In this document: positions 39,746 to 52,247 of the stretch, one piece after another | How the letters are laid out: the number at the start of each line of letters is the position of its first letter | Numbering within the stretch: the first letter of the stretch is position 1 | From: Shigella phage vB_SdyM_006 | Sequence record: MK295204 | Length of the DNA: 64,000 nucleotides | Direction: 5' to 3' (one strand) | Position numbers and translations under genes: made by a program | Notes under the pieces: model-generated | The model's database searches: none | What the model was told of the DNA's origin: nothing | What the model saw: only the letters and a program-made list of their open reading frames with translations

Positions 39746-40101
39746 TTCGTTTCCTCTACAACACTATCAGTGAACTTTTTAAACGAATTATTAATAAGTT
39801 TAGACACTAGTCCAGGTTTAGATTCAACGATATGTTCACGAGCTGCATCTTTTTTTAGTTTATAAGTTATGCTATTGGTTTCCGTCTGAATAGAACTAAA
39901 CTTATCGTTTAAAGCGTTGTATTGCTTTATTTGATTATTAAGTTTTTCTTTATAATCATCAAATTCTGTATTAAGCTTTTGTAGTGCTTTTTCTGTTTGA
40001 TCTAGTTTTGTTGCATTTTCTGTGTATAAATGGAATAATACCCCATTACTCAAAATAAGAACAAGACCAATAACTAAATAAATTTTTGTGTTCATTGACA
40101 C
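39742..40101 (-). CDS. i-spanin (inner-membrane, coiled-coil)
   Basis: N-terminal hydrophobic helix IYLVIGLVLILSNGVLFHL followed by coiled-coil-like periplasmic region; translationally coupled to o-spanin. Confidence 0.7.
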   Translation of the reverse strand: MSMNTKIYLVIGLVLILSNGVLFHLYTENATKLDQTEKALQKLNTEFDDYKEKLNNQIKQYNALNDKFSSIQTETNSITYKLKKDAAREHIVESKPGLVSKLINNSFKKFTDSVVEETK

Positions 40102-40592
40102 ACCTTAAAAATTGTGTTAATGATGTCGTCAGAAGATAATCCTCTGAATAGAATATGATTTCTTGATGTTGAAGAACTACAGGAAAAAGAAGGGATTAAA
40201 GAAGCCATATCATCGTATGTTAGTTCTTTATGCATAATACCAAGTTGGTGTTTTTCATAAATCGGGTCAACGATAATATAGCATTTATGGCCATTGATAT
40301 GAACATTAGGCTGTGAAATATTAATAAAGACCTCTGCATCAGTGTTAGCTAAATAACTTTCTAAAAATGACTTCATTTCTTGAACAGCTTCAGGTAATTT
40401 TTCGCGTCGTTCTTCAGAAACACGATTATTATATTCTTTTTGTTTGAGTGATTTAGATTTATTACGACCTAAAGCTGCTCTTAAATCAGACAAATAGCCT
40501 ACGCGTTTAGAGCCTTTCCAAACAGATAACCCATCATGACGGTCTCCAAAAGAAGCCACTACCATATCATTTGTAATTAGTTGTAAATCCAT
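40092..40592 (-). CDS. hypothetical protein (position and size of T4 alc)
   Basis: 166 aa vs 167 aa for T4 Alc; positional inference only. Confidence 0.4.
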   Translation of the reverse strand: MDLQLITNDMVVASFGDRHDGLSVWKGSKRVGYLSDLRAALGRNKSKSLKQKEYNNRVSEERREKLPEAVQEMKSFLESYLANTDAEVFINISQPNVHINGHKCYIIVDPIYEKHQLGIMHKELTYDDMASLIPSFSCSSSTSRNHILFRGLSSDDIINTIFKVCQ

Positions 40593-40649
40593 GTTAACCT
40601 CTCATTTTCAAATTTGTCTTACTATATTATAAAAATGAGAGGTTGTAAA

Positions 40650-41768
40650 CTACTTTTTATATACTTCTGGGATAAAAAATGTGTAGTATTTAACAAATAG
40701 ATCGTTTAAACATGATAATAATACGTCATAGTCAAATCCATTATACATTTTCATATAGGCAGAAAACACTTGTGGCACGCCTGCTTTATTGAATTCTGTC
40801 TGACCATTGATTGCGTAGTCTTTTCGATCTTTTCCAAGATTTGCTTCATAAACCATTTTAACAGATTCAACTTGGTCATGAATAGCTTGAGTATAGACTT
40901 CTTCAAAGGCTTTAATTTTTTCTAAAGATTCTTGGTCATTTGCAAATAATGATTTCAAATCGTCAGAGGTTCCTTCTACAATTGCTTTAAAAAGGTCTTC
41001 ATTTGAAGTAATAGAATCTTTTGTTCTGTGTAAAGAAACATAAGCATAACTTTTTACTTTAAATTTAGTCCCATCAGACATCTGAGCAACAACGCCTTCA
41101 ATACCTTGTGATTCATAAACACGCTCTACCCAACCTTCTTCAGGTTCGTATCTAGTAACCAAAATTGGTCTTAATTCTTTAATTGCTTTTAAAGAGTCAT
41201 AATCAATATATTCGCCGGTTTCATTATGACGAGCATTTAACAAGATTAAAGCTGGCTCAGAGTATTTAAGAACAATACGATTTGTTGGTGCAACATATTC
41301 AAAATTAAAAGTGTACTCAGGGTTATCTTTAATCACTTTCCTAACTTCAGAATACATTTCACTATTGATTAGTTTACATGCCTCTAGAGCCTGTTCTGAG
41401 CTAATAGAACCTTTAGATTTTAGATAAACGAACCCGTCAACAAGATAAGAACTAATTAATGAGCCGTCAGCTTTATCCATGAGATATTCTACTTTAGAAA
41501 GATCTAAATCCATTGTCATAGGATTTTCGTTTAAATTAAAAAACTTTTCCATAGGTCTAGAAAGAACTTTGACTGGATTATTATCTTTATCAAGTTCAAA
41601 CATAATACCACGACATTCTAAAGCATCTGGCAATAACCAATCTGAATATGAAGCATAATTATAATTAAAAATCCTTCCTTTTTTATCTATACTCAAATTT
41701 ACGTCATTATAGAAAAACTTTGTTCTATCATACTCGCATAAAGCCATCAAATTGTCAAATAGTTTCAT
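40650..41768 (-). CDS. rnlA: RNA ligase 1
   Basis: 372 aa vs 374 in T4; nucleotidyltransferase motif KADG (KxDG) and position upstream of denA. Confidence 0.8.
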   Translation of the reverse strand: MKLFDNLMALCEYDRTKFFYNDVNLSIDKKGRIFNYNYASYSDWLLPDALECRGIMFELDKDNNPVKVLSRPMEKFFNLNENPMTMDLDLSKVEYLMDKADGSLISSYLVDGFVYLKSKGSISSEQALEACKLINSEMYSEVRKVIKDNPEYTFNFEYVAPTNRIVLKYSEPALILLNARHNETGEYIDYDSLKAIKELRPILVTRYEPEEGWVERVYESQGIEGVVAQMSDGTKFKVKSYAYVSLHRTKDSITSNEDLFKAIVEGTSDDLKSLFANDQESLEKIKAFEEVYTQAIHDQVESVKMVYEANLGKDRKDYAINGQTEFNKAGVPQVFSAYMKMYNGFDYDVLLSCLNDLFVKYYTFFIPEVYKK

Positions 41769-42175
41769 TCTTTTTCCTTATGTTGTGTATTCCAATCAGG
41801 GTTAAACATTTTAATAAAAATTGGCTCTTCAAGGTCCATAGTACTTATTTCCATTTGCCCTAAATCATTTTTAGCCACTAAGTCAAAACACTGACGATAA
41901 TAAAATATTACAGATTTACCTTGATTTAAAGAATCATAGATATTTTTAGATTTAGTGGAATCTGAAGTCCAAGTTTGCCTGTTCATGGAAGTTCTGTAAT
42001 AATTTATCCTCTTTCTAAGATTTTTAGTTTTACCAATGTAAACTAATTGTCCATCAACTTCTATAGCGTATATTACATTTCTTTTTGTTTTAAGCTCTTT
42101 TGGAATAGGTGATATTTCATTATTGTCTAAATTGAGCTCTAAATATTTTACAAATCCGAATTGTTTAAATGACAT
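41765..42175 (-). CDS. denA: endonuclease II (GIY-YIG family)
   Basis: 136 aa, same length as T4 DenA; GIY-YIG core VIYAIEVDGQLVYIGKTKNLRKRINYYR. Confidence 0.85.
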   Translation of the reverse strand: MSFKQFGFVKYLELNLDNNEISPIPKELKTKRNVIYAIEVDGQLVYIGKTKNLRKRINYYRTSMNRQTWTSDSTKSKNIYDSLNQGKSVIFYYRQCFDLVAKNDLGQMEISTMDLEEPIFIKMFNPDWNTQHKEKE

Positions 42176-42182
42176 AAAAATA

Positions 42183-42198
42183 AAGGGCCGAAGCCCTT
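42183..42198 (-). terminator. hairpin terminator between nrdB and denA
   Basis: AAGGGC-CGAA-GCCCTT, T-run on minus strand. Confidence 0.55.
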
Positions 42199-42202
42199 CT
42201 CC

Positions 42203-43375
42203 TTATAAGTATTTCTTAAATCCATCTAAAACTTCTGGATTAATATCTTCATCAATTTGAGAAATTAAATAAGAATCGATTTCAACTTCTTGAGGTGCTG
42301 ATTGAACACCTTCAGAATTTAGATATTTAGACATCCAGACTAAAGGATTTTTAAGACCTTTATATGGACTATTTAATCCAGCATGACGCATTCGGATATC
42401 AGTAATATAGTCTACATAGCCTTTAAGATTTGTATGGTTTAAACCTGAGACAGTCCCAAATTTAAACAGATCATCTACCCAATCTTTTTCTTGTTGATTT
42501 ACTTCTAAGAATAATGTAGTAGCTTCTTCTTCAAGTTCATCTGCGATTTTTTTCCAGTGTTCGCCTTCTTTACCAGATTGCCATTGACGAATCATATATT
42601 GAGTGCCTTTAAGATGTAATTGTTCATCACGGGCAATCAACTTCATGATTTTGGTATTGCCTTCAAGAACACCTTTGTTTTCGAAGAAATTAAATGTACA
42701 CGCAAAAGATACATAAAACCGAATAGCTTCTAAAGCATTAATGGCATGCATACATAGATATAGTTTACGCATGGCATCATCTAAATCTTTTTCATATCGA
42801 TTCCAAGCGCCAATTAATTGGAATCCTGTTGGGTCTCGTTGTTCTTCTTCCTCAATAATGTCTTTAATATTTTCGTATTCTCTGATAGCCTTAATTAAAG
42901 AATCATAATATTTTGTGATTGATTCTGCACGAGCCATAATAGCATCATCAAGAACAATTTCGTCAAATTCTTTTGATGGGTCTTCATAAAGATTACGCAT
43001 AATATGAGTATAAGACCTAGAATGAATTGTTTCGCTAAATGACCATGTTTGAATCCATGTTTCTAATGAGACATCAGAACAAATAGACAATAAAGCTTCT
43101 GATGGACCACGTCCTTGAATAGAATCAAGAAGTGTTTGATATTTTAAGTTATTAGTAAAAATTCTTTTTTCGTGTTCAAGTAATTTGTCGTACTGTGATT
43201 TGTCTGTCATTAAATTAACTTCTTCTGGCCGCCAAAAAAAGCTTAAAGCTTTTTCAGTCAAATCTTCAAAGACTCGATGTTTTACTGTTTCGTAACGTGC
43301 AATACCTGTTGATTCACCAAAGAACATTGGCTGAGACATGATGTCGATTTGTTCTTTATTAAAAATAGTTGCCAT
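42203..43375 (-). CDS. nrdB: ribonucleotide reductase small subunit (class Ia), uninterrupted
   Basis: 390 aa vs 388 in T4; contiguous ORF, so no intron. Confidence 0.9.
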   Translation of the reverse strand: MATIFNKEQIDIMSQPMFFGESTGIARYETVKHRVFEDLTEKALSFFWRPEEVNLMTDKSQYDKLLEHEKRIFTNNLKYQTLLDSIQGRGPSEALLSICSDVSLETWIQTWSFSETIHSRSYTHIMRNLYEDPSKEFDEIVLDDAIMARAESITKYYDSLIKAIREYENIKDIIEEEEQRDPTGFQLIGAWNRYEKDLDDAMRKLYLCMHAINALEAIRFYVSFACTFNFFENKGVLEGNTKIMKLIARDEQLHLKGTQYMIRQWQSGKEGEHWKKIADELEEEATTLFLEVNQQEKDWVDDLFKFGTVSGLNHTNLKGYVDYITDIRMRHAGLNSPYKGLKNPLVWMSKYLNSEGVQSAPQEVEIDSYLISQIDEDINPEVLDGFKKYL

Positions 43376-43476
43376 TTTAATCCTTAATTTTTCTTTTTAC
43401 AAGGGTCCCATCTTTTACTGCTTTGTCATAAGCAATTTTAATTAATCGTAGACGTTCCACTTTAGAATTTCTAATT

Positions 43477-43510
43477 TTGTTAAAATCTATCTCGGACGAA
43501 TCCGAGATAG
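43477..43510 (-). terminator. terminator after nrdA
   Basis: 10-bp stem CTATCTCGGA-CGAA-TCCGAGATAG then T-run on minus strand. Confidence 0.65.
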
Positions 43511-43515
43511 TTGTA

Positions 43516-45756
43516 TTATAACTTACAGCTTTCGCAATCTGACTGTCCTTGATCTTCATCTTGATTATTACCATCATTAGTATTATGATAATACATAGTT
43601 TTTCCACCTAATGACCAGAAGTATAACATATCATCCATGATTACGCTCATTGGTACCTTAGATTTTTCATAAATACTTGGAGTGTAATAAGTATTAACAG
43701 AAATACTTTGGTCTACAAACTTCTGCATAATAGCAGCTTGAGTTAAATAACCTTTCATTCCGCGTTTACTTAGGTCCCAGGCATAATCATAAAGATCTTC
43801 ATTAAACTCAATATTAGGAACAACTTGATTAAACGACCCGTCTTTAGAAGCTTTAGCTGTTACAGATTTTCTTGGTGGTTCAATACCATTTGTGCTATTA
43901 GAAACTTGAGAAGACGATTCACACGGCATTAATGCAGATAAAGTACTGTTTCTGATACCATATTTCTTAAGGTCTTTTCTTAAAGATTCCCAATCACAAA
44001 CATATTCCGGTTTAACAATTTTATCTAAATTTTTATTATACCAATCAATAGGTAATAAGCCTTGAGAATACTTAGTTTCGTGATAAAGTTCGCATGGACC
44101 TTTTTCTTTAGCTAAATCAACAGAAGCTCTGATTAATGCATATTGTAGTCGTTCAAATAACTCATGAGTAAACTGTTGTGCATTATCATAATTTAAGAAC
44201 TGAGAAGCTAACGCCGCTGCATAGTTAGTTACACCCATTCCTAATGCTCTACGTTTTTTAGCAATTAAAGCTTTTTCAACAGGATAATCTTGATAATCTA
44301 ATAAAGCATCTAATGCTCGGACACCGACACGTGCAATTTTATTAATTTGTTCTTGGTCTTGATAATCAAAAGAATCTAGAACAAATGCACTTAATGTACA
44401 TAAAGCTATTTCGCCATCAGGTTTGCCTACATCACTTGTTGGCAATGTAATTTCAGCACATAAATTACTTAATCTGATAGGTGATGTTCTTCTGATAAAA
44501 GAACCTTGTCTATTAACATTATCGACAAAGAACGGATAAATTCTTGCAGTGTTAGCTCGTTCAGTTAATAGAATAGAAAATACTTCTGAAGCCTTAATTC
44601 GTTTTTTACGAATATTAGGGTCTTTTTCTGCTGCTTCATATAAATTACGGAATTTCTCTTCATCAGAAAAATATGAATCATACATTCCTTGGACTTCATG
44701 TGGGCTGAACAGAGTAATATAATCGTTATTAATTAAACGTTCAATCATAAGGTTATTAATTTGAATTCCATAGTCAAGATGTCGAATACGGTTTTCTTCA
44801 ATGCCTTTATTATTTTTTAGAACAAGCAATTTTTCTAATTCAAGATGCCAAATTGGATAATATAATGTAGCAGACCCACCACGAATACCACCTTGAGAAC
44901 AACTTTTTACAGAAGCCAAATGAGTTTTCCAGAAAGGAATAACGCCAGTGTGTCTTACTTCGCCTGAACCAATTTTAGAACCTTCAGCACGATACATACC
45001 AGCATTAATGCCAATCCCAGCTCGTTTAGAAATATATTTGATAATTGAACGGTTTGTTTCATTAATAGAATCTAATGAGTCACCACTATCAATAACAACA
45101 CAAGAGCTAAATTGACGAGTAGGTGTTCGTACACCAGCTAAAATAGGTGTAGGTAATGATAATTGTTTATCCGAGACTACGTCATAGAATTCAATGACCT
45201 GGTTTAATCGATTATTAGTTTCTTCTTGGAATAAGCACATCCCAATTAGCATAAATGCATATTGAGGAGTCTCGTAAATAATTCCAGTCGAACGGTCTTT
45301 AACTAAGTATTTACTTATTAATTGCATTGTCCCTGCATAAGTAAATTTAAAATCTTTATCATGATTGATATGATTTTCTAATTCTTCAATTTCTTGTGCT
45401 GTATATTTACTTAAAATCTCAGAATCATATAATCCCAGGTTTACATTACGAGAAATTAATTCAATAAATGGAATAGGATTAGATTGTCCATATACTTTTT
45501 TACGTAATGCAATATGCTCTAAATTAGAAGCCACATACTGATAATCTGGGGTTTCTTTTGAAATATTAGAAGCAGCAACTTTAATAATTGTTCGTTGAAT
45601 CTGCTCTGTGGTCATATTATCTGTAAACATTGGTCTAGAGATTTCCATTACTTCATATGGGTCCACTGATGTATTTCTGCATGCAATCTCTAGTACATTA
45701 ATAATTTTAGATTCGTCAAAATCTTGAGTTACACCTGATGATTTAATTACTTTCAT
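43516..45756 (-). CDS. nrdA: ribonucleotide reductase large subunit (class Ia)
   Basis: 746 aa; catalytic blocks NLCAEI, SNLC, C-terminal CESCKL redox pair; 10-bp-stem terminator directly after stop. Confidence 0.95.
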   Translation of the reverse strand: MKVIKSSGVTQDFDESKIINVLEIACRNTSVDPYEVMEISRPMFTDNMTTEQIQRTIIKVAASNISKETPDYQYVASNLEHIALRKKVYGQSNPIPFIELISRNVNLGLYDSEILSKYTAQEIEELENHINHDKDFKFTYAGTMQLISKYLVKDRSTGIIYETPQYAFMLIGMCLFQEETNNRLNQVIEFYDVVSDKQLSLPTPILAGVRTPTRQFSSCVVIDSGDSLDSINETNRSIIKYISKRAGIGINAGMYRAEGSKIGSGEVRHTGVIPFWKTHLASVKSCSQGGIRGGSATLYYPIWHLELEKLLVLKNNKGIEENRIRHLDYGIQINNLMIERLINNDYITLFSPHEVQGMYDSYFSDEEKFRNLYEAAEKDPNIRKKRIKASEVFSILLTERANTARIYPFFVDNVNRQGSFIRRTSPIRLSNLCAEITLPTSDVGKPDGEIALCTLSAFVLDSFDYQDQEQINKIARVGVRALDALLDYQDYPVEKALIAKKRRALGMGVTNYAAALASQFLNYDNAQQFTHELFERLQYALIRASVDLAKEKGPCELYHETKYSQGLLPIDWYNKNLDKIVKPEYVCDWESLRKDLKKYGIRNSTLSALMPCESSSQVSNSTNGIEPPRKSVTAKASKDGSFNQVVPNIEFNEDLYDYAWDLSKRGMKGYLTQAAIMQKFVDQSISVNTYYTPSIYEKSKVPMSVIMDDMLYFWSLGGKTMYYHNTNDGNNQDEDQGQSDCESCKL

Positions 45757-45767
45757 TTTATTCCTTT

Positions 45768-46379
45768 CTAGATATAATATTGATCTATTTTTCTAATATG
45801 GCTTTTAATAAACGAACTTAATATGGATGACAATTTTATAGAATTTTCTACATTGTAACACCCCATAATCTTTTTATCACAAGATGCTAAAGAAAACATA
45901 TAAACAGGTTCTTTGTTTTCATCATTTAAATAATTAACAATAGATACAGCAGAAGAAAAATGGTTATTGTTTTTATCATCTGTTAAAAAATCTTTGATAC
46001 ATATTTCTGTCTTAGATTCTGCATGGTATTTCCAACTATCTAGATATTTCACAAGTTTATTAAGCTTAGTTTTATAATGGGATAAAATTTTATCTGCACA
46101 TATTTTATTAGGGGTTTTACCGTATGAATAAAAACTTGGTGTGTGTAAAATAATATGTCTAGTCCCGAAATTAAATCCTATAGATGCCACTAAATTTATA
46201 GGTCTATTTTTATTTCTTATCTTTTTGTATTCTAAAGAAACAGATTCTGATAAAACAATCCATTCGGATTCGTTAATTTCATAAAAAGCATTATTTGATA
46301 TTTCTGTGGAAATATCAGTTTTATTAATATACATAAAAGTCTCACAAATATATTTTATCATTAAACAGTTTATTAACAA
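45768..46379 (-). CDS. hypothetical protein
   Basis: 203 aa ORF between nrdA and td; no nuclease motifs recognised. Confidence 0.5.
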   Translation of the reverse strand: MLINCLMIKYICETFMYINKTDISTEISNNAFYEINESEWIVLSESVSLEYKKIRNKNRPINLVASIGFNFGTRHIILHTPSFYSYGKTPNKICADKILSHYKTKLNKLVKYLDSWKYHAESKTEICIKDFLTDDKNNNHFSSAVSIVNYLNDENKEPVYMFSLASCDKKIMGCYNVENSIKLSSILSSFIKSHIRKIDQYYI

Positions 46380-46626
46380 CTTCGGCTATTATATCACCAT
46401 GGCATGGCTTAGGATAACATGTGCAACCAAGTCTAGAGCCTCTTAAAACTTCAAGATGATGTTTATTTATTTCGCCAGTTTTTATTTTATTAAGAAAATA
46501 TGGGATAAACCTTTTGATGTTTTCTTCTCTAGTTCCATCTTTAAAAGGATTACCCCACATTGTCCCTCTTTGAATATTAATATCAAAGTCAGAGTTATAT
46601 TTATTAACGACTCTACAATGTTTCAT
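46342..46626 (-). CDS. small Cys/His protein, possibly DUF4326-like
   Basis: 94 aa; motifs WGNPF and LGCTCYPKPCHGD; family assignment from memory, not verified. Confidence 0.45.
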   Translation of the reverse strand: MKHCRVVNKYNSDFDINIQRGTMWGNPFKDGTREENIKRFIPYFLNKIKTGEINKHHLEVLRGSRLGCTCYPKPCHGDIIAEVVNKLFNDKIYL

Positions 46627-46787
46627 TAACTATACATTAAAGGAAGAATTACAACAAACAATAATAGCATAATTAATAATAATTCCATTATATCTCCTTA
46701 AACCAAGGTTGGGTTTCTTCATACAAAAATCCGGCCATTAAACAAATAACAGGAAACCAAATAATAAAAGCTATTAAATATTCCATG

Positions 46788-47135
46788 TTAGTCCTTTGGC
46801 TTCATGAATTCTAATAAAGCTTCTTTAAGTTCGCTAATATTAAGCCAGGCATTAAATTCTGATTTATATTCTCTAAAGTCTATAATATATTCTAAAGGAA
46901 CAATAGAACCCAATTTTAGTTCATGTGTATAATCAAACAGTAACGTTGAACCAGAATAACAACTAATTTTTAAATTTTCGTATTCGTTATAATTAAATTC
47001 AATTGTCTTATCAAATGGGTCTACATCATACAATAATTCGCATTTATACAATTCGGAACAAAGGGATTCTACAGAATCCCAAATTCCTAAAGTGTGCTCA
47101 TAATCATCATAGACCGCTTGGACTAAAAAATTCAT
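46788..47135 (-). CDS. hypothetical protein
   Basis: 115 aa ORF. Confidence 0.45.
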   Translation of the reverse strand: MNFLVQAVYDDYEHTLGIWDSVESLCSELYKCELLYDVDPFDKTIEFNYNEYENLKISCYSGSTLLFDYTHELKLGSIVPLEYIIDFREYKSEFNAWLNISELKEALLEFMKPKD

Positions 47136-47143
47136 AATATTTC

Positions 47144-47995
47144 CTATACACTGAAAGGGTATTTAATAGCAGGGTGATATTGATAATCTTGTACTTCAAA
47201 ATCATCTACAGTGACCCAGGTTTCAATATCTTCTAATGATCTGATATTATCATTAATAATAAGTTTAGGTGCATTAAACGGCGTCCTAGACACATGCTCT
47301 GGGACTAAAGATAATTGGTCTTCATAGATATGGGCATTTGTTATCTTATGAAACACTTTACCAGGTTTATTTGCTGTAATCTGGGCCATTAAATGTAAAA
47401 GCACATAACACTGAATCATATTAAAATTTAAACCTAATGGGACATCACATGATCTTTGGTATGAAGTTAAATATAAAGTCCCATTAACGAGAGAAAAATT
47501 ATGGGTATGCATACAAGGACGTAAACAACCTAAGTCAAATTCTCCTGGATTCCAGAACGTTAGGATTTCTCCACGATCATCAGTTCCTTCACTTAAATTA
47601 TCATAGATTTTTCTGAGTTGGTCAATAGTGCTATTAGGTCCTTGCCATTGTCGTCCTTGAACACCATAAACACGGCCCATATCGTCTTCACCTTTGCGAT
47701 GAGGGTTATTTAGCCATGCTTGATTTTCATTAGCGTTTGCATTCCATGTATTACAACCAATTTCACGAAATTGCGCTGCATTGTCGTAACCACGAAGATA
47801 TCCTAACAGTTCAGCAATAGCAGCTTTATAAAAGCTTTTACGAGTTGTATCAATTGGGAATTCAGAATATTCTAGGTCGGCATTAATAATAACACGACAA
47901 AATTTTCCAGTTCGTTTATTATATACGTCTTGGCCTTCATTATAAATCTTTTTTAATAATTGTTGATACTGATTCTTTTCTAAGATCTTTTCCAT
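47144..47995 (-). CDS. td: thymidylate synthase, uninterrupted
   Basis: 283 aa; active-site region [11 protein letters not shown] and C-terminal [10 protein letters not shown]; single contiguous ORF. Confidence 0.95.
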
Positions 47996-48285
47996 TTATT
48001 ATCACTCACGTACACCAATTGTTTAAAAGATAGTTTAAGCTGTTCTATAGATACTTTAGAATCCGCTGTAACGAATTCTAATTCACCCATTCCTAGCATT
48101 TTACCATCAACCCAAAGTTCAATACATGTCATGTCCCACCAATTTTTTCTAGAATTCAAGAAATCTCTAACTTGTTCTAAGTTAGAGAAAACTCCTGCGT
48201 TTCTAGAGGATTCACACATATTATGGTCAACAACAATAAGTATCTTCGACATTTTTATCCACCAAAACAAAATAAATTTGCTCAC
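47980..48285 (-). CDS. hypothetical protein
   Basis: 101 aa ORF overlapping td start by 16 nt. Confidence 0.4.
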
Positions 48286-48634
48286 CTTGTTTAATAAAAT
48301 ATCCGTAGATTTTTACTTCAGTATCTTTAACTTTAACATACCCTTCAGAAACGGCTTTTGTTATGTCAAATAGTGTAGTACGAATATAAACCAAGCCATC
48401 TTTAGTTCTAATAGATGTACATGATGAATTTATATTTGAGCCAAGTTCTTTTATATCACAAGAAATCTCATAAATACCATGGTGTAATTCTCGTTCTTGA
48501 CAATTTCTATAATTAGATTTAAAAGTTTTTAAAGAAATAGAATCTAAAAAGAATGTTCTTGAAGGAGGCGCTTTAACTAATTTCCATGAGCACATTGGTT
48601 GTACAAACTTTTTATACAATTTAATTTCAGCCAT
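48227..48634 (-). CDS. hypothetical protein, tandem paralogue A
   Basis: 135 aa; shares W-x-LV-x-AP, FF-x-D, HG(I/V)YE and SEG motifs with 48627..49028. Confidence 0.45.
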   Translation of the reverse strand: MAEIKLYKKFVQPMCSWKLVKAPPSRTFFLDSISLKTFKSNYRNCQERELHHGIYEISCDIKELGSNINSSCTSIRTKDGLVYIRTTLFDITKAVSEGYVKVKDTEVKIYGYFIKQGEQIYFVLVDKNVEDTYCC

Positions 48635-49028
48635 TATTCAAGTCCTCATTTATTAAAGGATAAAGACAAATAATACGGCCATTTTTTCTAAAGATACCTT
48701 TAACTGTAATTAAGTTATTTTCAATTTTAGTATGTCCTTCAGAAATAGATTTAAAAAGACGACATAAACATGTGTCCATTTTAACAGCTCGTTTATCTGT
48801 GATATCTGAATTTGTCAAATATAAATCGTGTCCATTACCGCCATATTCTCTATCAATTTTATAATTTTTTAATTCGTAGACACCATGCGGCATAACATCA
48901 ACATGTTCTTTTCGTATTAAAGATTTATACCCATCGATAGTAAGGTCTTTAAAGAATAAGAAATGTTCTTTAGGTGCTTCTACAAGAACCCAATTATTTT
49001 GTTCTTCAAATCTGTGAATTAGTTGCAT
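48627..49028 (-). CDS. hypothetical protein, tandem paralogue B
   Basis: 133 aa; paralogue of 48227..48634. Confidence 0.45.
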   Translation of the reverse strand: MQLIHRFEEQNNWVLVEAPKEHFLFFKDLTIDGYKSLIRKEHVDVMPHGVYELKNYKIDREYGGNGHDLYLTNSDITDKRAVKMDTCLCRLFKSISEGHTKIENNLITVKGIFRKNGRIICLYPLINEDLNNG

Positions 49029-49648
49029 ACTCGTTCCAGTATAGTTTCTTCGATATAATTTTTAATATCGATATCGTTAAAATAATCAGTAACATATAAA
49101 TGAGATTCTACTAACTTAAATTTAGCGTATCCACTCAAATATTGCCCAATAGATTTATCTAAAAATGTATCTGCAGGATTTGTATCTGCATGTAAAACAG
49201 AAGTCCAAATAATCCTATCACAAAATTCAAATGAAGCTTCGATTAAACGTTTACCACCTATAATAGAAACTAAGTTCTTAGGGTTCTTGTTGTTAAATGT
49301 TGGAGCAACTTCGGCTTCTTTACAGATTTGTTCTAATTCATAAGGACCCCATGGTCCTACTATTTCTTTATCAGCAGGTTTTCCGTCTAATGAAAGTAGT
49401 TCACCTCTAGGGTCATCAACAAGAACAATAGAAATTCGGTCTTTCAATTTAGGCATAGACATAAATGTTTTAGGGCCCATGATAACATACGAATCAATTT
49501 GAGACGTAACAGGAACCATTCTAGGAGCTATAGTTCTTGATCTGAAGTTATCCATATCTTTTTTAATACGTGGCCAAGGAAGGGTTCCTTTGAATCCTAT
49601 TCCGTATCCTTTCTGGTCGTATTGAGTTGCAAAAACGGTCTGAATCAT
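49019..49648 (-). CDS. frd: dihydrofolate reductase
   Basis: 209 aa; DHFR N-terminal signature GTLPWPRIKKDMDNFRSRT and glycine pair IIGGKRL; position upstream of td. Confidence 0.8.
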   Translation of the reverse strand: MIQTVFATQYDQKGYGIGFKGTLPWPRIKKDMDNFRSRTIAPRMVPVTSQIDSYVIMGPKTFMSMPKLKDRISIVLVDDPRGELLSLDGKPADKEIVGPWGPYELEQICKEAEVAPTFNNKNPKNLVSIIGGKRLIEASFEFCDRIIWTSVLHADTNPADTFLDKSIGQYLSGYAKFKLVESHLYVTDYFNDIDIKNYIEETILERVCN

Positions 49649-49682
49649 AGAATCTCCAAAGGGACTTTCGTCCTTTAATTTA

Positions 49683-50033
49683 TTAAGCTAGCCAAAAATC
49701 TTTATTCGTACCAAAAATATTAATTGTGACCTTATCAGCAGTCTCATCATATTTTTTATTAACTAAAACTAGGTCATCAATCTTGTGACATACACGAAGT
49801 TTCTTATAAAAATAATTTAATATTTCATAAAGTTCTTTTGTTTCTTCACGCGGTTCGTTAGACATACAATAACAACGAATAGCAGATAAATCATATCCAA
49901 ATTCTTCTGGGCCCATAAGTTTTGCATTAATTTCTGCAGGGTCAACATCTTTATAACAACACATAGGGTAGACAGTCCCATCCATGTCACGAAATTTGAA
50001 GCCGTAATCTGCCAGTGTTTTTAAAGTTTTCAT
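49683..50033 (-). CDS. hypothetical protein
   Basis: 116 aa ORF. Confidence 0.45.
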   Translation of the reverse strand: MKTLKTLADYGFKFRDMDGTVYPMCCYKDVDPAEINAKLMGPEEFGYDLSAIRCYCMSNEPREETKELYEILNYFYKKLRVCHKIDDLVLVNKKYDETADKVTINIFGTNKDFWLA

Positions 50034-50040
50034 ATTGTTC

Positions 50041-50544
50041 TCACATTTTTACCAAAGTTTCTTTTAAAAATTCATATGCACTGATGAAGTCTTTTTCTTC
50101 AGTATATCCAAGTTCAGGTATTTCAATAGAAGGGTCTTTAAATCTAGCTTCAAGAGTTTTTATCATTTTCTTGACACCTTTTTTATCTAAAAATACCGCT
50201 TTACCTGGTGTATATAAATTCGCAGAATACACTTTATGCTTAGTGGGCCCATCTACAATCTTACCTTCATCTAAAGGTTCTAAAAACTGTATTGTAAATT
50301 GAGTAAACAAATAAGGTGTAATAACCCATGGAACAAATACACCATCAACACAGAGTCGATAACAAGATTGATTAATTCGTTTAAGCCCAAATTCAACATC
50401 CCATTTACTAAAATCATTATTTGTAATATAATTAGCAATTTGAGTATTTTGAACTCCATTTTTAGCATTAATGAATTTATTAAAATCTTCTTTAGATTTA
50501 AATTTGTACCGACATACGTTTTTAAGGTTTTTAGGCTGTTTCAT
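50041..50544 (-). CDS. hypothetical early protein
   Basis: 167 aa; preceded by GTTTAC-N17-TATTAT early promoter and SD GAGG. Confidence 0.5.
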   Translation of the reverse strand: MKQPKNLKNVCRYKFKSKEDFNKFINAKNGVQNTQIANYITNNDFSKWDVEFGLKRINQSCYRLCVDGVFVPWVITPYLFTQFTIQFLEPLDEGKIVDGPTKHKVYSANLYTPGKAVFLDKKGVKKMIKTLEARFKDPSIEIPELGYTEEKDFISAYEFLKETLVKM

Positions 50545-50572
50545 AATCTACCTCATTTGTTTTGATGTGTCC

Positions 50573-50601
50573 ATAATATCACGCTAAAAATCTTTGTAAA
50601 C
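50573..50601 (-). promoter_or_regulatory. early promoter (AAATAAATGTTTAC-N17-TATTAT)
   Basis: Minus-strand GTTTAC (plus 50596-50601), 17-nt spacer, TATTAT (plus 50573-50578); follows the gene 32 terminator. Confidence 0.55.
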
Positions 50602-50620
50602 ATTTATTTTCTATAAAACC

Positions 50621-50643
50621 AAAAAAGGAACCCGAAGGTTCCT
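50621..50643 (-). terminator. terminator after gene 32 (AGGAACC-CGAA-GGTTCCT)
   Basis: Hairpin then T-run on minus strand, directly followed by an early promoter. Confidence 0.65.
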
Positions 50644-50655
50644 TTTATTAAGAAA

Positions 50656-51552
50656 TTAGATGAGTTCGTTTAAAATATCATCAACTGACTGGTCAGTCAT
50701 TGAGCTTTCACCCAAATCAACTGGTTCGTTAAATGAAGACATTTGACTAGAAAAATCATCTTGAGCAGATAAATTATCTAATTCGGCATCAATATCAGCA
50801 GAAGCATTTGATGCAGAACCTGCAACCATTCCAACACCCATAACTTGTTTAAACTTAGTTTCTAACTCAGCATAAGGTTTAAACTGGTCTTTAGCAACGA
50901 TAGCTTGTAAATCTACACATTGATCAATAATTGATTTTTGAACAGCTTCATCATCAATATTAGGAATTTCTGATTGTGCATAGAACTTACAGTCATCATA
51001 ATTAGGGAAATTACTTACTTTTTTAACTTTAAGAGCAAAGTTAGCACCTTCAAAAGGACAGAAAATATTTACTGGTGTCTCACCCATTTCGATATCAACG
51101 TTTGCCATAGAATCAATCTTATCCATGATTTTTTGACCGAAACGATATTTAAATACTTTACCTTCATTTTCAGGAGCACTTGGGTCTTTAACAACTAAAA
51201 TATTAGCCCAATAAGAATGTTTACGTTTAATCAGTTTATATTCTTCTGGATTAGTATTGTATGAGTCTTTTTCTGTTAAATATTTACACACTGGGCATGA
51301 ATCATAATCGCCGTGTGTAGAACTACAATTATTGATATACCATTTACCATTTTTCTTAAAACCATGATTTGTTAGTTTAACAAATGGAGTAGCATTATCA
51401 TCTTTAGCTGGTAAAAAACGAATTACTGCGTTACCATTACCTGCGGCATCAGTTTTTAATTTCCATTCGTTTTTATCTTCGTTTTGAAAACCACCACCTT
51501 TTAAGCCAGCTAATTGTTCTTGAAGTTCTGTTACTGATTTACGTTTAAACAT
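50656..51552 (-). CDS. 32: single-stranded DNA-binding protein
   Basis: 298 aa vs 301 in T4; zinc ligands in [15 protein letters not shown], acidic C-terminal tail. Confidence 0.93.
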
Positions 51553-51593
51553 ACTTTTACCTTTATATTATTTACAGTTTTACTTTATTTACT

Positions 51594-52247
51594 TTAATAT
51601 TTACATGCATTGATTGTTTCAACAAAAACTTTCTTTGCCGTTTCACTATCTATTTCTAGAAGTTTTTTATATGAACTTAATTTAGTTGAATATGTAGACC
51701 AAACTAAGTCAGTCGAACATTGGTCATGTTTATTTATAATACCTAAAAACGAATCAAGTAAAATAAAAGTTTCATAACCAATGATATTAGATTGGAGAAG
51801 TTTGAATATATAAGATGTTTGTGTTTTAGTATTATATTCAAATATATCTTTAAGCGAACTTACATTTATCTTTTTAGAGAAGTAATAAATGTTTTTAAGG
51901 TCTTCTTTATAAACATCAGAAAGACCTTGTAATTTACCAATATATTCTCTATAAAATACCAAGGCGTCGGCGTCGGATATTTCACCTATCCAAGCATCTT
52001 GGTTAGCTACTAAATTAGAAATAAAAATATAAACAAGTTCATTAAGTTTATATTTATCAGAAAGTTTTTCAAAAAAATATTTATCACGACGTTTATTATA
52101 AGCCGCATCCGATATACGCATTGTCCAGTTATACTTAATTACATCGTATTTACCGTTCATATGATTTTTTAACATCAAATATAATTGGTACACACTTTTA
52201 CCGGTAATATATCTATTTGAATTATGTGGAATACGGACTTTAATCAT
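51594..52247 (-). CDS. 59: helicase loader
   Basis: 217 aa, same length as T4 gp59; long identity runs (GKSVYQLYLM-K-HMNGKYDVIKYNW, FISNLVANQDAWIG-ISDADALVFYREYIG, FKLLQSNII). Confidence 0.95.
   Translation of the reverse strand: MIKVRIPHNSNRYITGKSVYQLYLMLKNHMNGKYDVIKYNWTMRISDAAYNKRRDKYFFEKLSDKYKLNELVYIFISNLVANQDAWIGEISDADALVFYREYIGKLQGLSDVYKEDLKNIYYFSKKINVSSLKDIFEYNTKTQTSYIFKLLQSNIIGYETFILLDSFLGIINKHDQCSTDLVWSTYSTKLSSYKKLLEIDSETAKKVFVETINACKY

Follow-up and report, generated by a model that had tools for sequence, protein, structure and literature searches.

In phage T4, the genes td and nrdB both carry group I introns (with I-TevI and I-TevIII, respectively), and a free-standing HNH gene, mobE, lies between nrdA and nrdB. 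Proteus phage phiP4-3 (Bragavirus p43) likewise has a 1055-nt td intron that is homologous to the T4 td intron and whose gene encodes GIY-YIG, NUMOD3 and I-TevI DNA-binding domains. The td-nrdA gap of T4 also harbors nrdA.1, a member of the Pfam family DUF4326 (E 5.5e-22), which follows nrdA.2 (DUF5496) and abuts nrdA. A computational study predicted that DUF4326 is a divergent clade of rhodanese-phosphatases processing the terminal ribose phosphates of ADPr derivatives (PMC9503650), and fusions of DUF4326 to other domains have been reported (PMC7824862, PMC9503650); our literature search found no experiment on any DUF4326 protein.

The DNA analyzed here is a stretch of 64,000 nucleotides from sequence record MK295204 (hereafter, the window). 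It is 99.1% identical to the deposited Proteus phage SJ_PmiM and is itself a Bragavirus, a T4-like Proteus phage. Relative to T4, with which it shares host genes and gene order across the td-nrdA-nrdB region, the window lacks both introns and mobE. All genes of the block are encoded on the minus strand in the order frd, td, ORF115, two mini-ORFs, nrdA.1, ORF188, nrdA, a small ORF, nrdB, denA and rnlA (Table 1), and the gene order agrees with those of T4 and RB6. The genes are separated by short gaps or have overlapping stop and start codons, an arrangement that suggests co-transcription and translational coupling. Overall, we consider it very probable that the region is a conserved T4-type early/middle nucleotide-precursor block in which td and nrdB are intron-free and nrdA.1 has its ortholog in the DUF4326 gene. 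The window itself adds little, being a normally organized segment of an already deposited Bragavirus genome.

Table 1. Genes, open reading frames and empty intron sites in and around the td-nrdA-nrdB block of the window.
Feature	Coordinates	Strand	Basis or remark
td, thymidylate synthase, 283 aa, uninterrupted	47144-47995	minus	single ORF and profile matches
Empty phiP4-3-type td intron site, R181/S182 codons	47452..47453	minus	comparison with phiP4-3
Empty T4-type td intron site, G188/L189 codons	47431..47432	minus	tblastn and T4 exon junction
ORF115, 115 aa, phrog_22133	46788-47135	minus	Bragavirus only
32-aa hydrophobic ORF (MEYLIAFIIWFPVICLMAGFLYEETQPWFKEI)	46688..46786	minus	annotated in SJ_PmiM and PM2
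20-aa hydrophobic ORF	46626..46688	minus	TAATG overlaps with both neighbors
nrdA.1 ortholog, 94-aa DUF4326 protein	46342-46626	minus	Pfam and T4 match
ORF188 (203-aa ORF if TTG start, reaching 46379)	45768..46334	minus	ATG at 46334
nrdA, class Ia RNR alpha subunit, 746 aa, contiguous	43516..45756	minus	profile and T4 comparison
Small ORF like T4 a-gt.2 (DUF5486), start codon uncertain	43377..43559	minus	nrdA-nrdB spacer
nrdB, class Ia RNR beta subunit, 390 aa, uninterrupted	42203-43375	minus	single ORF and profile matches
Approximate empty T4-type nrdB intron site, NrdB residues about 225-227	42695..42701	minus	comparison with T4
denA, endonuclease II (GIY-YIG)	41765..42175	minus	T4 EndoII ortholog

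An initial sequence-only reading of the window had assigned the 94-aa protein to DUF4326 on the basis of its WGNPF and CxC...CHGD motifs, and the assignment holds. The protein matches PF14216 over positions 1-82 of 82 (E 1.1e-20; 74.5 bits, cutoff 25), with WGNPF at residues 24-28 and C68-T-C70-YPKP-C75-H76-G-D78 toward the C-terminus. It is 67% identical to T4 NrdA.1 over 89 residues (E 5e-42), and the two share the core residues N8, R20, G25, N26, C68, C70, P72, C75, H76, G77 and D78 as well as family, gap position and direction of transcription. T4 NrdA.1 is longer (108 aa versus 94 aa), with an N-terminal extension of 7 residues and a C-terminal one of 9 that are missing from the window protein. 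These comparisons exclude a loss of the reciprocal best match to T4 NrdA.1, which would have counted against orthology, and nrdA.1 is found in the td-nrdA gap of T4, RB6 and four Bragavirus genomes. Based on these matches, the window gene is identified as the ortholog of T4 nrdA.1 in a conserved position, and DUF4326 genes of the td-nrdA gap should be named accordingly. What does not survive is the contrast implied by the sequence-only reading, in which the gap would hold a DUF4326 protein in place of what T4 encodes: the corresponding gap of T4 and of RB6 contains nrdA.1. Because T4 also encodes a DUF4326 protein, NrdA.1, at that site, the gene reflects conserved synteny rather than a substitute for an intron.

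The immediate neighbors of nrdA.1 do differ. In place of the T4 arrangement, the window has ORF115 and two mini-ORFs upstream and ORF188 inserted before nrdA. Of these, the sequence-only reading had listed only the last, as a 203-aa protein beside the 94-aa one, and had missed the ORFs of 115, 32 and 20 aa. ORF115 shares 47% identity with its PM2 counterpart and has no similarity to T4 NrdA.2. The 32-aa and 20-aa ORFs are translationally coupled; in PM2, the sequence of the 20-aa ORF differs while its hydrophobicity is kept. An ORF does lie at the position of the supposed 203-aa protein, but its TTG start is doubtful: the product is probably 188 aa, initiated from the ATG, a product that agrees with the gene calls of PM2 and of clusters P0113 and P0114. 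The SJ_PmiM counterpart is annotated as 197 aa. Homologs of ORF188 form two clusters only among 5.8 billion proteins and are limited to Bragavirus-type phages, and in phiP4-3 the gene is replaced, exactly from the nrdA.1 stop codon to the nrdA start codon, by an unrelated 95-aa ORF. ORF188 is a lineage-restricted, swappable cassette. Its AlphaFold2 model (pLDDT 53) was too poor for a fold search, and PADLOC and NCBIfam searches with the three gap proteins returned no matches.

The DUF4326 family extends well beyond this locus, with homologs in about 2000 phage records and 17,194 clusters at 50% identity, and occurs in archaeal viruses and giant viruses in addition to T4. Among 261 members, C68, C75 and H76 are invariant, C70 is present in 260, N26 in 258 and R20 in 257; R20, G25, N26 and C70 are each kept in at least 257. 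The positions of the GNP (G25-N26-P27) and CxCxPxxCHGD motifs are conserved in 249-261 of the 261, except for P27 (218/261). The three Cys and one His, C68, C70, C75 and H76, invariant or nearly so, fit a metal site as well as a thiol nucleophile. In the AlphaFold2 model of NrdA.1 (pLDDT 93.5), C68 ends a strand (residues 65-68), C70 falls in the following loop, and C75 and H76 begin a helix (residues 76-87). PDB sequence searches with a single DUF4326 protein and with a profile recovered only spurious TPR and PPR repeat matches, Foldseek found no match to the model in the PDB, and a BFVD structure search returned other DUF4326 proteins only. We independently reproduced the previously reported domain fusions: the 43 long DUF4326 members include SLOG-type domains (15), NADAR (3), RNase H (1) and Dam (1). 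In unrelated phages, the neighboring genes belong to replication, repair or nucleotide metabolism: nrdD/nrdG, dut/dcd, MazG, gp46/47, RNase HII, ligase and Dam.

The invariant residues and the SLOG and NADAR fusions together suggest that the protein is a small enzyme with substrates of the ribose-phosphate or ADP-ribose type. We tentatively propose that NrdA.1 is a small alpha/beta enzyme whose active centre would combine N8, R20 and G25-N26 (the GNP loop) with the strand-loop-helix C68-x-C70-x-P-x-x-C75-H76-G-D78. Produced early, alongside replication and nucleotide-metabolism functions, the enzyme would target a phosphate or ribose linkage in a substrate derived from a nucleotide or from ADP-ribose, whether that substrate is free or joined to nucleic acid. 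This proposal agrees with the rhodanese-phosphatase prediction for the family. Against it, the loop differs from those of PTP and Cdc25 enzymes. These feature C-X5-R, whereas DUF4326 features C-X5-H (C70-YPKPC-H76) with the His in 261/261 members, and has neither the C-X5-R of rhodanese-phosphatases nor the C-X4/5-R of rhodaneses. A more specific version, in which DUF4326 would be a new kind of enzyme with a Cys/His centre, destroying or repairing a molecule derived from ADP-ribose, is more doubtful still. Candidate substrates may include a ribose phosphate that serves as an immune signal, or the product of its breakdown; ends of nucleic acids that are ADP-ribosylated or phosphorylated are further candidates. 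If true, DUF4326 would represent a widespread viral counter-defence or repair function. T4 nrdA.1 would offer a ready genetic handle, and the window contributes one more ortholog with no special bearing on function.

Alternatively, NrdA.1 could be a metal-binding protein in which C68, C70, C75 and H76 coordinate Zn, making it a Zn-dependent hydrolase or a non-catalytic binder of nucleic acid or protein rather than a thiol phosphatase. We regard this as possible, though short of probable. All or nearly all of the 261 members retain each of the four candidate ligands, which adopt a knuckle-plus-helix-start arrangement in the model; moreover, no Arg occupies the C+6 position and no significant phosphatase match was found. 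Yet C75 directly precedes H76, so that the two would be awkwardly placed to share one ion, and the near-invariance of N8, R20, G25, N26 and D78, distant in sequence from the Cys cluster, suggests a substrate pocket. The repeated fusions to SLOG and NADAR, which are enzymatic or ligand-binding domains, likewise favor an enzyme.

The location of the gene could also be explained if NrdA.1 were an accessory factor of RNR or dNTP synthesis, such as a redox-active Cys protein. Consistent with this, the DUF4326 gene occupies the td-nrdA gap of T4, RB6 and Bragavirus, follows nrdB in Slopekvirus Matisse, has nrdD and nrdG on either side in jumbo phage WPEC5, and is close to dut and dcd in IME392. Beyond T4-like phages, however, most contexts have no nearby RNR gene, including those of Ackermannviridae (after gp46/47), N4-like early regions, Sophrita, PN09, Chazly21, PaMx74 and metagenomic phages, and fusion to an RNR domain is seen in none of the 43 long members. 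The label "ribonucleotide reductase NrdA-like" that databases attach is mistaken: it derives solely from the T4 gene name and has spread from there. We reject a general DUF4326-RNR linkage, which holds for T4-like phages and one jumbo phage only, and consider an accessory role unlikely. Slightly less plausible again is a kinship with the NADAR N-glycosidase fold, of which DUF4326 would be a reduced form that removes ADP-ribose from bases: comparison of the DUF4326 profile with a small NADAR alignment in hhalign gave a probability of 0.2%, the DUF4326 portion of a fusion protein scored -1.8 bits with a NADAR HMM, and the presence of both domains within single polypeptides implies that their functions are probably distinct. 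Homology to NADAR was rejected by phmmer, hmmsearch and hhalign alike, and Pfam NADAR (PF08719) did not match the 94-aa protein of the window.

The td product matches Pfam Thymidylat_synt over profile positions 1-266 of 266 (E 2.5e-71) and the NCBIfam equivalog NF002498 over positions 2-283 of 283 (473.9 bits, cutoff 427). It retains L158, C161, D184 and N192, which correspond to E. coli L143, C146, D169 and N177, the residues of dUMP-type specificity (10.1101/2025.06.16.659550). The equivalog-level HMM and the specificity residues agree in assigning the product as ThyA-type (dUMP to dTMP). When the window Td was aligned to T4 and RB6 by tblastn, the alignment broke at residues 188/189, and the phiP4-3-type site lies 21 nt upstream of this T4-type site. 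The window keeps the protein context of the T4 insertion site (PLG|LNFN versus FLG|LPFN), and 27 of the 48 nt in the I-TevI homing-site region of T4 td are identical. Uninterrupted td is also found in three other Bragavirus genomes (SJ_PmiM, PM2 and Pm5461).

Similarly, nrdB matches Pfam Ribonuc_red_sm over profile positions 6-281 of 281 and NF006576 over positions 4-375 of 376 (472 bits, cutoff 346), and NrdA is 67% identical to its T4 counterpart. The nrdA-nrdB spacer measures 140 bp, and a small a-gt.2-like ORF is found at the position that mobE occupies in T4. We rejected this ORF as the relic of a homing endonuclease gene (HEG) because it has no similarity to either the phiP4-3 HNH protein or T4 MobE. 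The sole GIY-YIG ORF of the region, denA, was likewise ruled out as a homing endonuclease; it is the ortholog of T4 EndoII, and its product shares 59% identity with the N-terminal region of T4 DenA.

The sequence-only reading had further described td and nrdB as single contiguous ORFs free of introns and homing endonucleases, and each part of that description is borne out. A scan of window positions 40000-52000 with Rfam RF00028 (Intron_gpI) gave zero matches at E<=1, and the same scan detected both the td and nrdB introns of T4 (36.9 and 35.7 bits). The real td intron of phiP4-3 was missed, so the negative Rfam result is weak alone; T4 was therefore used as the control, and the absence of introns rests on colinearity of ORFs and profiles. 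Both genes are colinear from end to end with the profiles and with the T4 and phiP4-3 exons, with no extra sequence, and their products run unbroken across the T4 intron positions. No homing-endonuclease ORF was found within or beside td, nrdA or nrdB. Thus, td and nrdB are intact, intron-free alleles, the unoccupied form of sites that are filled by mobile introns or HEGs in T4 and phiP4-3. This is the common state among T4 relatives, shared by most of them, and is not unusual. It is highly improbable that td, nrdB or the gap ORFs conceal an overlooked intron, cryptic or degenerate, or the remnant of a homing endonuclease: although Rfam failed on a genuine intron and ORF188 has been swapped in the manner of a mobile cassette, the colinear genes leave no added sequence, searches of Pfam, NCBIfam and PADLOC revealed no nuclease domain in ORF188, ORF115 or the a-gt.2-like ORF (the last dissimilar to either HNH protein), and in PHROGs, ORF188 and ORF115 match families without assigned function.

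Finally, phiP4-3 provides the filled counterpart of these alleles. It is 97.5-99% identical to the window at the nucleotide level in three of four aligned blocks and 95% across nrdA, and it carries intact copies of nrdA.1 and ORF115 that differ little from those of the window. Its td intron lies between the R181 and S182 codons rather than at the T4 site, where codons also differ between the phages at the phiP4-3-type position (CAA AGA in the window, CAG CGT in phiP4-3), and a 629-bp insert with an HNH+NUMOD3 gene separates nrdA from nrdB, where the window has only its short spacer. The window and phiP4-3 form a natural empty/filled pair at three sites, namely the td intron, the nrdA-nrdB HNH gene and the ORF188 cassette, and this allele pair could be used for studies of homing and co-conversion. 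Mismatches between the two phages are clustered beside every insertion or replacement.

The td-nrdA-nrdB region is a compact block of minus-strand genes, as established by ORF listing and family searches. Megablast places the window in Bragavirus, the T4-like Proteus phages, with 99.1% identity to SJ_PmiM, 95.7% to phiP4-3, and 84% to PM2 and Pm5461; vB_SdyM_006 has been given as 98% similar to phiP4-3 (PMC7925395). The arrangement is ordinary, and public records already contain such regions.

Genes and ORFs of the td-nrdA-nrdB block, in gene order
Feature	Coordinates	Strand	Basis
gp32	50656-51552	minus	ORF listing, family searches
frd	49019-49648	minus	ORF listing, family searches
Three small ORFs (between frd and td)		minus	
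td	47144-47995	minus	ORF listing, family searches
ORF115	46788-47135	minus	
32-aa ORF	46688-46786	minus	
20-aa ORF	46626-46688	minus	
DUF4326 gene (94 aa)	46342-46626	minus	
ORF188	45768-46334	minus	
nrdA	43516-45756	minus	
Small DUF5486 ORF (in the 140-bp nrdA-nrdB spacer)	43377-43559	minus	
nrdB	42203-43375	minus	
denA	41765-42175	minus	
rnlA (after denA)		minus	

Both td and nrdB are uninterrupted and free of homing endonucleases, as the sequence-only reading had claimed. Td matches Pfam Thymidylat_synt over 1-266/266 and the NCBIfam equivalog NF002498 over 2-283/283, and NrdB matches Ribonuc_red_sm over 6-281/281 and NF006576 over 4-375/376, with both NCBIfam cutoffs exceeded. In tblastn against T4 and RB6, Td residues 9-188 correspond to T4-type exon 1 (in T4 and RB6) and residues 189-283 to exon 2 (in RB6); NrdB residues 1-225 and 227-390 correspond to T4 exons 1 and 2. 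Td and NrdB of the window thus continue unbroken through the T4 insertion points. No intron was found in 40000-52000 by Rfam, scanned by E-value; applied to the T4 locus as positive control, the scan returned Intron_gpI in both genes, at 36.9 bits (E 1.7e-6) for td and 35.7 bits (E 4e-6) for nrdB. Though it detected both T4 introns, the scan was blind to the real td intron of phiP4-3; ORF and profile colinearity are therefore the main evidence that the window lacks introns. The sole nuclease-domain ORF nearby, denA, shares 59% identity with T4 endonuclease II and is not a homing endonuclease. T4 carries a segG-like endonuclease between genes 32 and 59, whereas the window has none at that place. 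Since SJ_PmiM, PM2, and Pm5461 share the empty allele, the absence of inserts is probably ancestral in Bragavirus; the number of homing endonucleases in T4 is exceptional among its relatives (PMC2988022).

phiP4-3 is 97.5-99% identical to the window in three of four shared blocks and 95% across nrdA, and the two differ at three places. First, its td is split between the R181 and S182 codons (47453 and 47452 in the window) by a 1055-nt insertion (6652-7706 in L001, the phiP4-3 sequence), with U as the last nucleotide of the 5' exon and G as the last of the insert. This insert and the T4 td intron are homologous (segments 71%, 77%, and 91% identical), and the insert's I-TevI-like product has GIY-YIG, NUMOD3, and I-TevI DNA-binding domains. 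The site lies 21 nt upstream of that in T4 (between G188 and L189; 47432 and 47431 in the window), close to the positions 23 and 25 nt upstream at which I-TevI cleaves its own target (PMC2988022). Second, window 43378-43514 is replaced by a 629-bp segment with an HNH+NUMOD3 gene, in the same nrdA-nrdB spacer that mobE occupies in T4. Third, window 45767-46331, holding ORF188, is replaced by 261 bp with an unrelated 95-aa ORF, the divergence beginning directly past the nrdA.1 stop codon. Mismatches crowd beside each difference, with 10 in 43300-43377, 61 in 45400-45766, and 21 in 47100-47458, where the usual level is about 0-1 per 100 nt; this clustering looks like the pattern expected of recombination, or of homing with co-conversion of flanks. 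Further mismatch patches are found at 44600-44800, inside nrdA, and at 50100-50600.

The 94-aa protein was rightly recognized from its motifs as DUF4326 (Pfam, E 1.1e-20), but the gene is no contrast with T4. T4 and RB6 carry nrdA.1 and nrdA.2 in the td-nrdA gap; T4 NrdA.1 is also DUF4326 (Pfam, E 5.5e-22) and is 67% identical to the window protein (E 5e-42), which by homology and position is its ortholog. In phiP4-3 the full 94-aa ORF is intact and annotated as 72 aa from a later start. Elsewhere (Sophrita gp122, VEcB gp157, phrog_24867), DUF4326 proteins are mislabelled "ribonucleotide reductase NrdA-like", a misnomer carried over from the name of the T4 gene.

DUF4326 homologs were found in 1996 phage records by tblastn and, by a full HMMER scan, in 17,194 representatives of clusters formed at 50% identity, and BFVD matches include haloarchaeal viruses, pandoraviruses, pithoviruses, and marseilleviruses. 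A literature search found no experimental work on the domain. Neighbors in unrelated phages are replication, repair, and nucleotide-metabolism genes: nrdB and denA in Matisse, dut and dcd in IME392, MazG and SSB in PaMx74, gp46/47 in Ackermannviridae, and RNase HII, DNA ligase, and Dam in metagenomic phages; in N4-like phages the gene lies in early regions. In the jumbo phage WPEC5 (L006 4983-5309) it sits between the anaerobic genes nrdD and nrdG, a second, independent adjacency to ribonucleotide reductase (RNR), of a different class. The AlphaFold2 model of NrdA.1 is confident (pLDDT 93.5; strand 5-8, helix 33-49, strand 65-68, helix 76-87). C68, C75, and H76 are invariant in 261/261 members, and C70 (260), G25 and P72 (259 each), N26 (258), R20 (257), N8 (250), and D78 (249) nearly so. 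Among 43 long members, 15 carry SLOG-type domains, three NADAR, one RNase H, and one Dam, reproducing fusions described by the Aravind group, who predicted either a divergent rhodanese-phosphatase domain that targets ADP-ribose derivatives at their terminal ribose phosphates or a connection of NAD-based systems with the modification or replication of DNA (PMC9503650, PMC7824862). NrdA.1 may be a small enzyme, expressed early and built around a Cys/His centre, and we only tentatively propose a ribose-phosphate or ADP-ribose-type substrate. About as plausible is that the conserved Cys/His residues mark a metal-site protein. An accessory role to RNR is less likely, as is a NADAR-like role, for which hhalign against a small NADAR alignment was negative.

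Td carries the canonical dUMP-specific ThyA residues L158, C161, D184, and N192, by the criteria of 10.1101/2025.06.16.659550, which discusses dCMP-modifying thymidylate synthase homologs for Bragaviruses. By these residues the window protein is a true thymidylate synthase and not such a homolog. Td is only 36% identical to its T4 counterpart, versus 67% for NrdA and about 60% for NrdB, which suggests that td may differ in origin from the flanking RNR genes. The frd-td interval, empty in T4, holds paralogous neighbors (48227-48634 and 48627-49028; 135 and 133 aa; both phrog_1928) and a 101-aa ORF.

The 203-aa protein of the sequence-only reading is present in the gap, but probably not at that extent: the longer version starts at a TTG (46379), and a likelier ATG at 46334 gives ORF188. 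Its product is 100% identical to a vB_SdyM_006 protein. Its matches are limited to phrog_29380, five Proteus-phage records, and, in a set of 5.8 billion proteins, two clusters; its structure model is unreliable (pLDDT 53), and it behaves like a replaceable cassette. The phiP4-3 ORF in its place is mislabelled "major virion structural protein", although it has no Pfam match; together with the short nrdA.1 call, this is one of the annotation errors in L001 5244-5757. ORF115 is restricted to Bragavirus, unrelated to T4 NrdA.2, and fast-evolving, since it is 47% identical to PM2 against about 84% DNA identity over the region. The seemingly non-coding 160 bp at 46626-46786 comprise two hydrophobic mini-ORFs (32 and 20 aa), translationally coupled to their neighbors through TAATG overlaps and likely to encode small membrane peptides; in PM2 the 20-aa sequence is divergent, with a 6-nt deletion, and stays hydrophobic. 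Finally, the nrdA-nrdB spacer ORF is a T4 a-gt.2 homolog (Pfam DUF5486, 37 bits) without similarity to the phiP4-3 HNH+NUMOD3 endonuclease or T4 mobE; it overlaps the end of nrdA and is left unannotated in SJ_PmiM and PM2.
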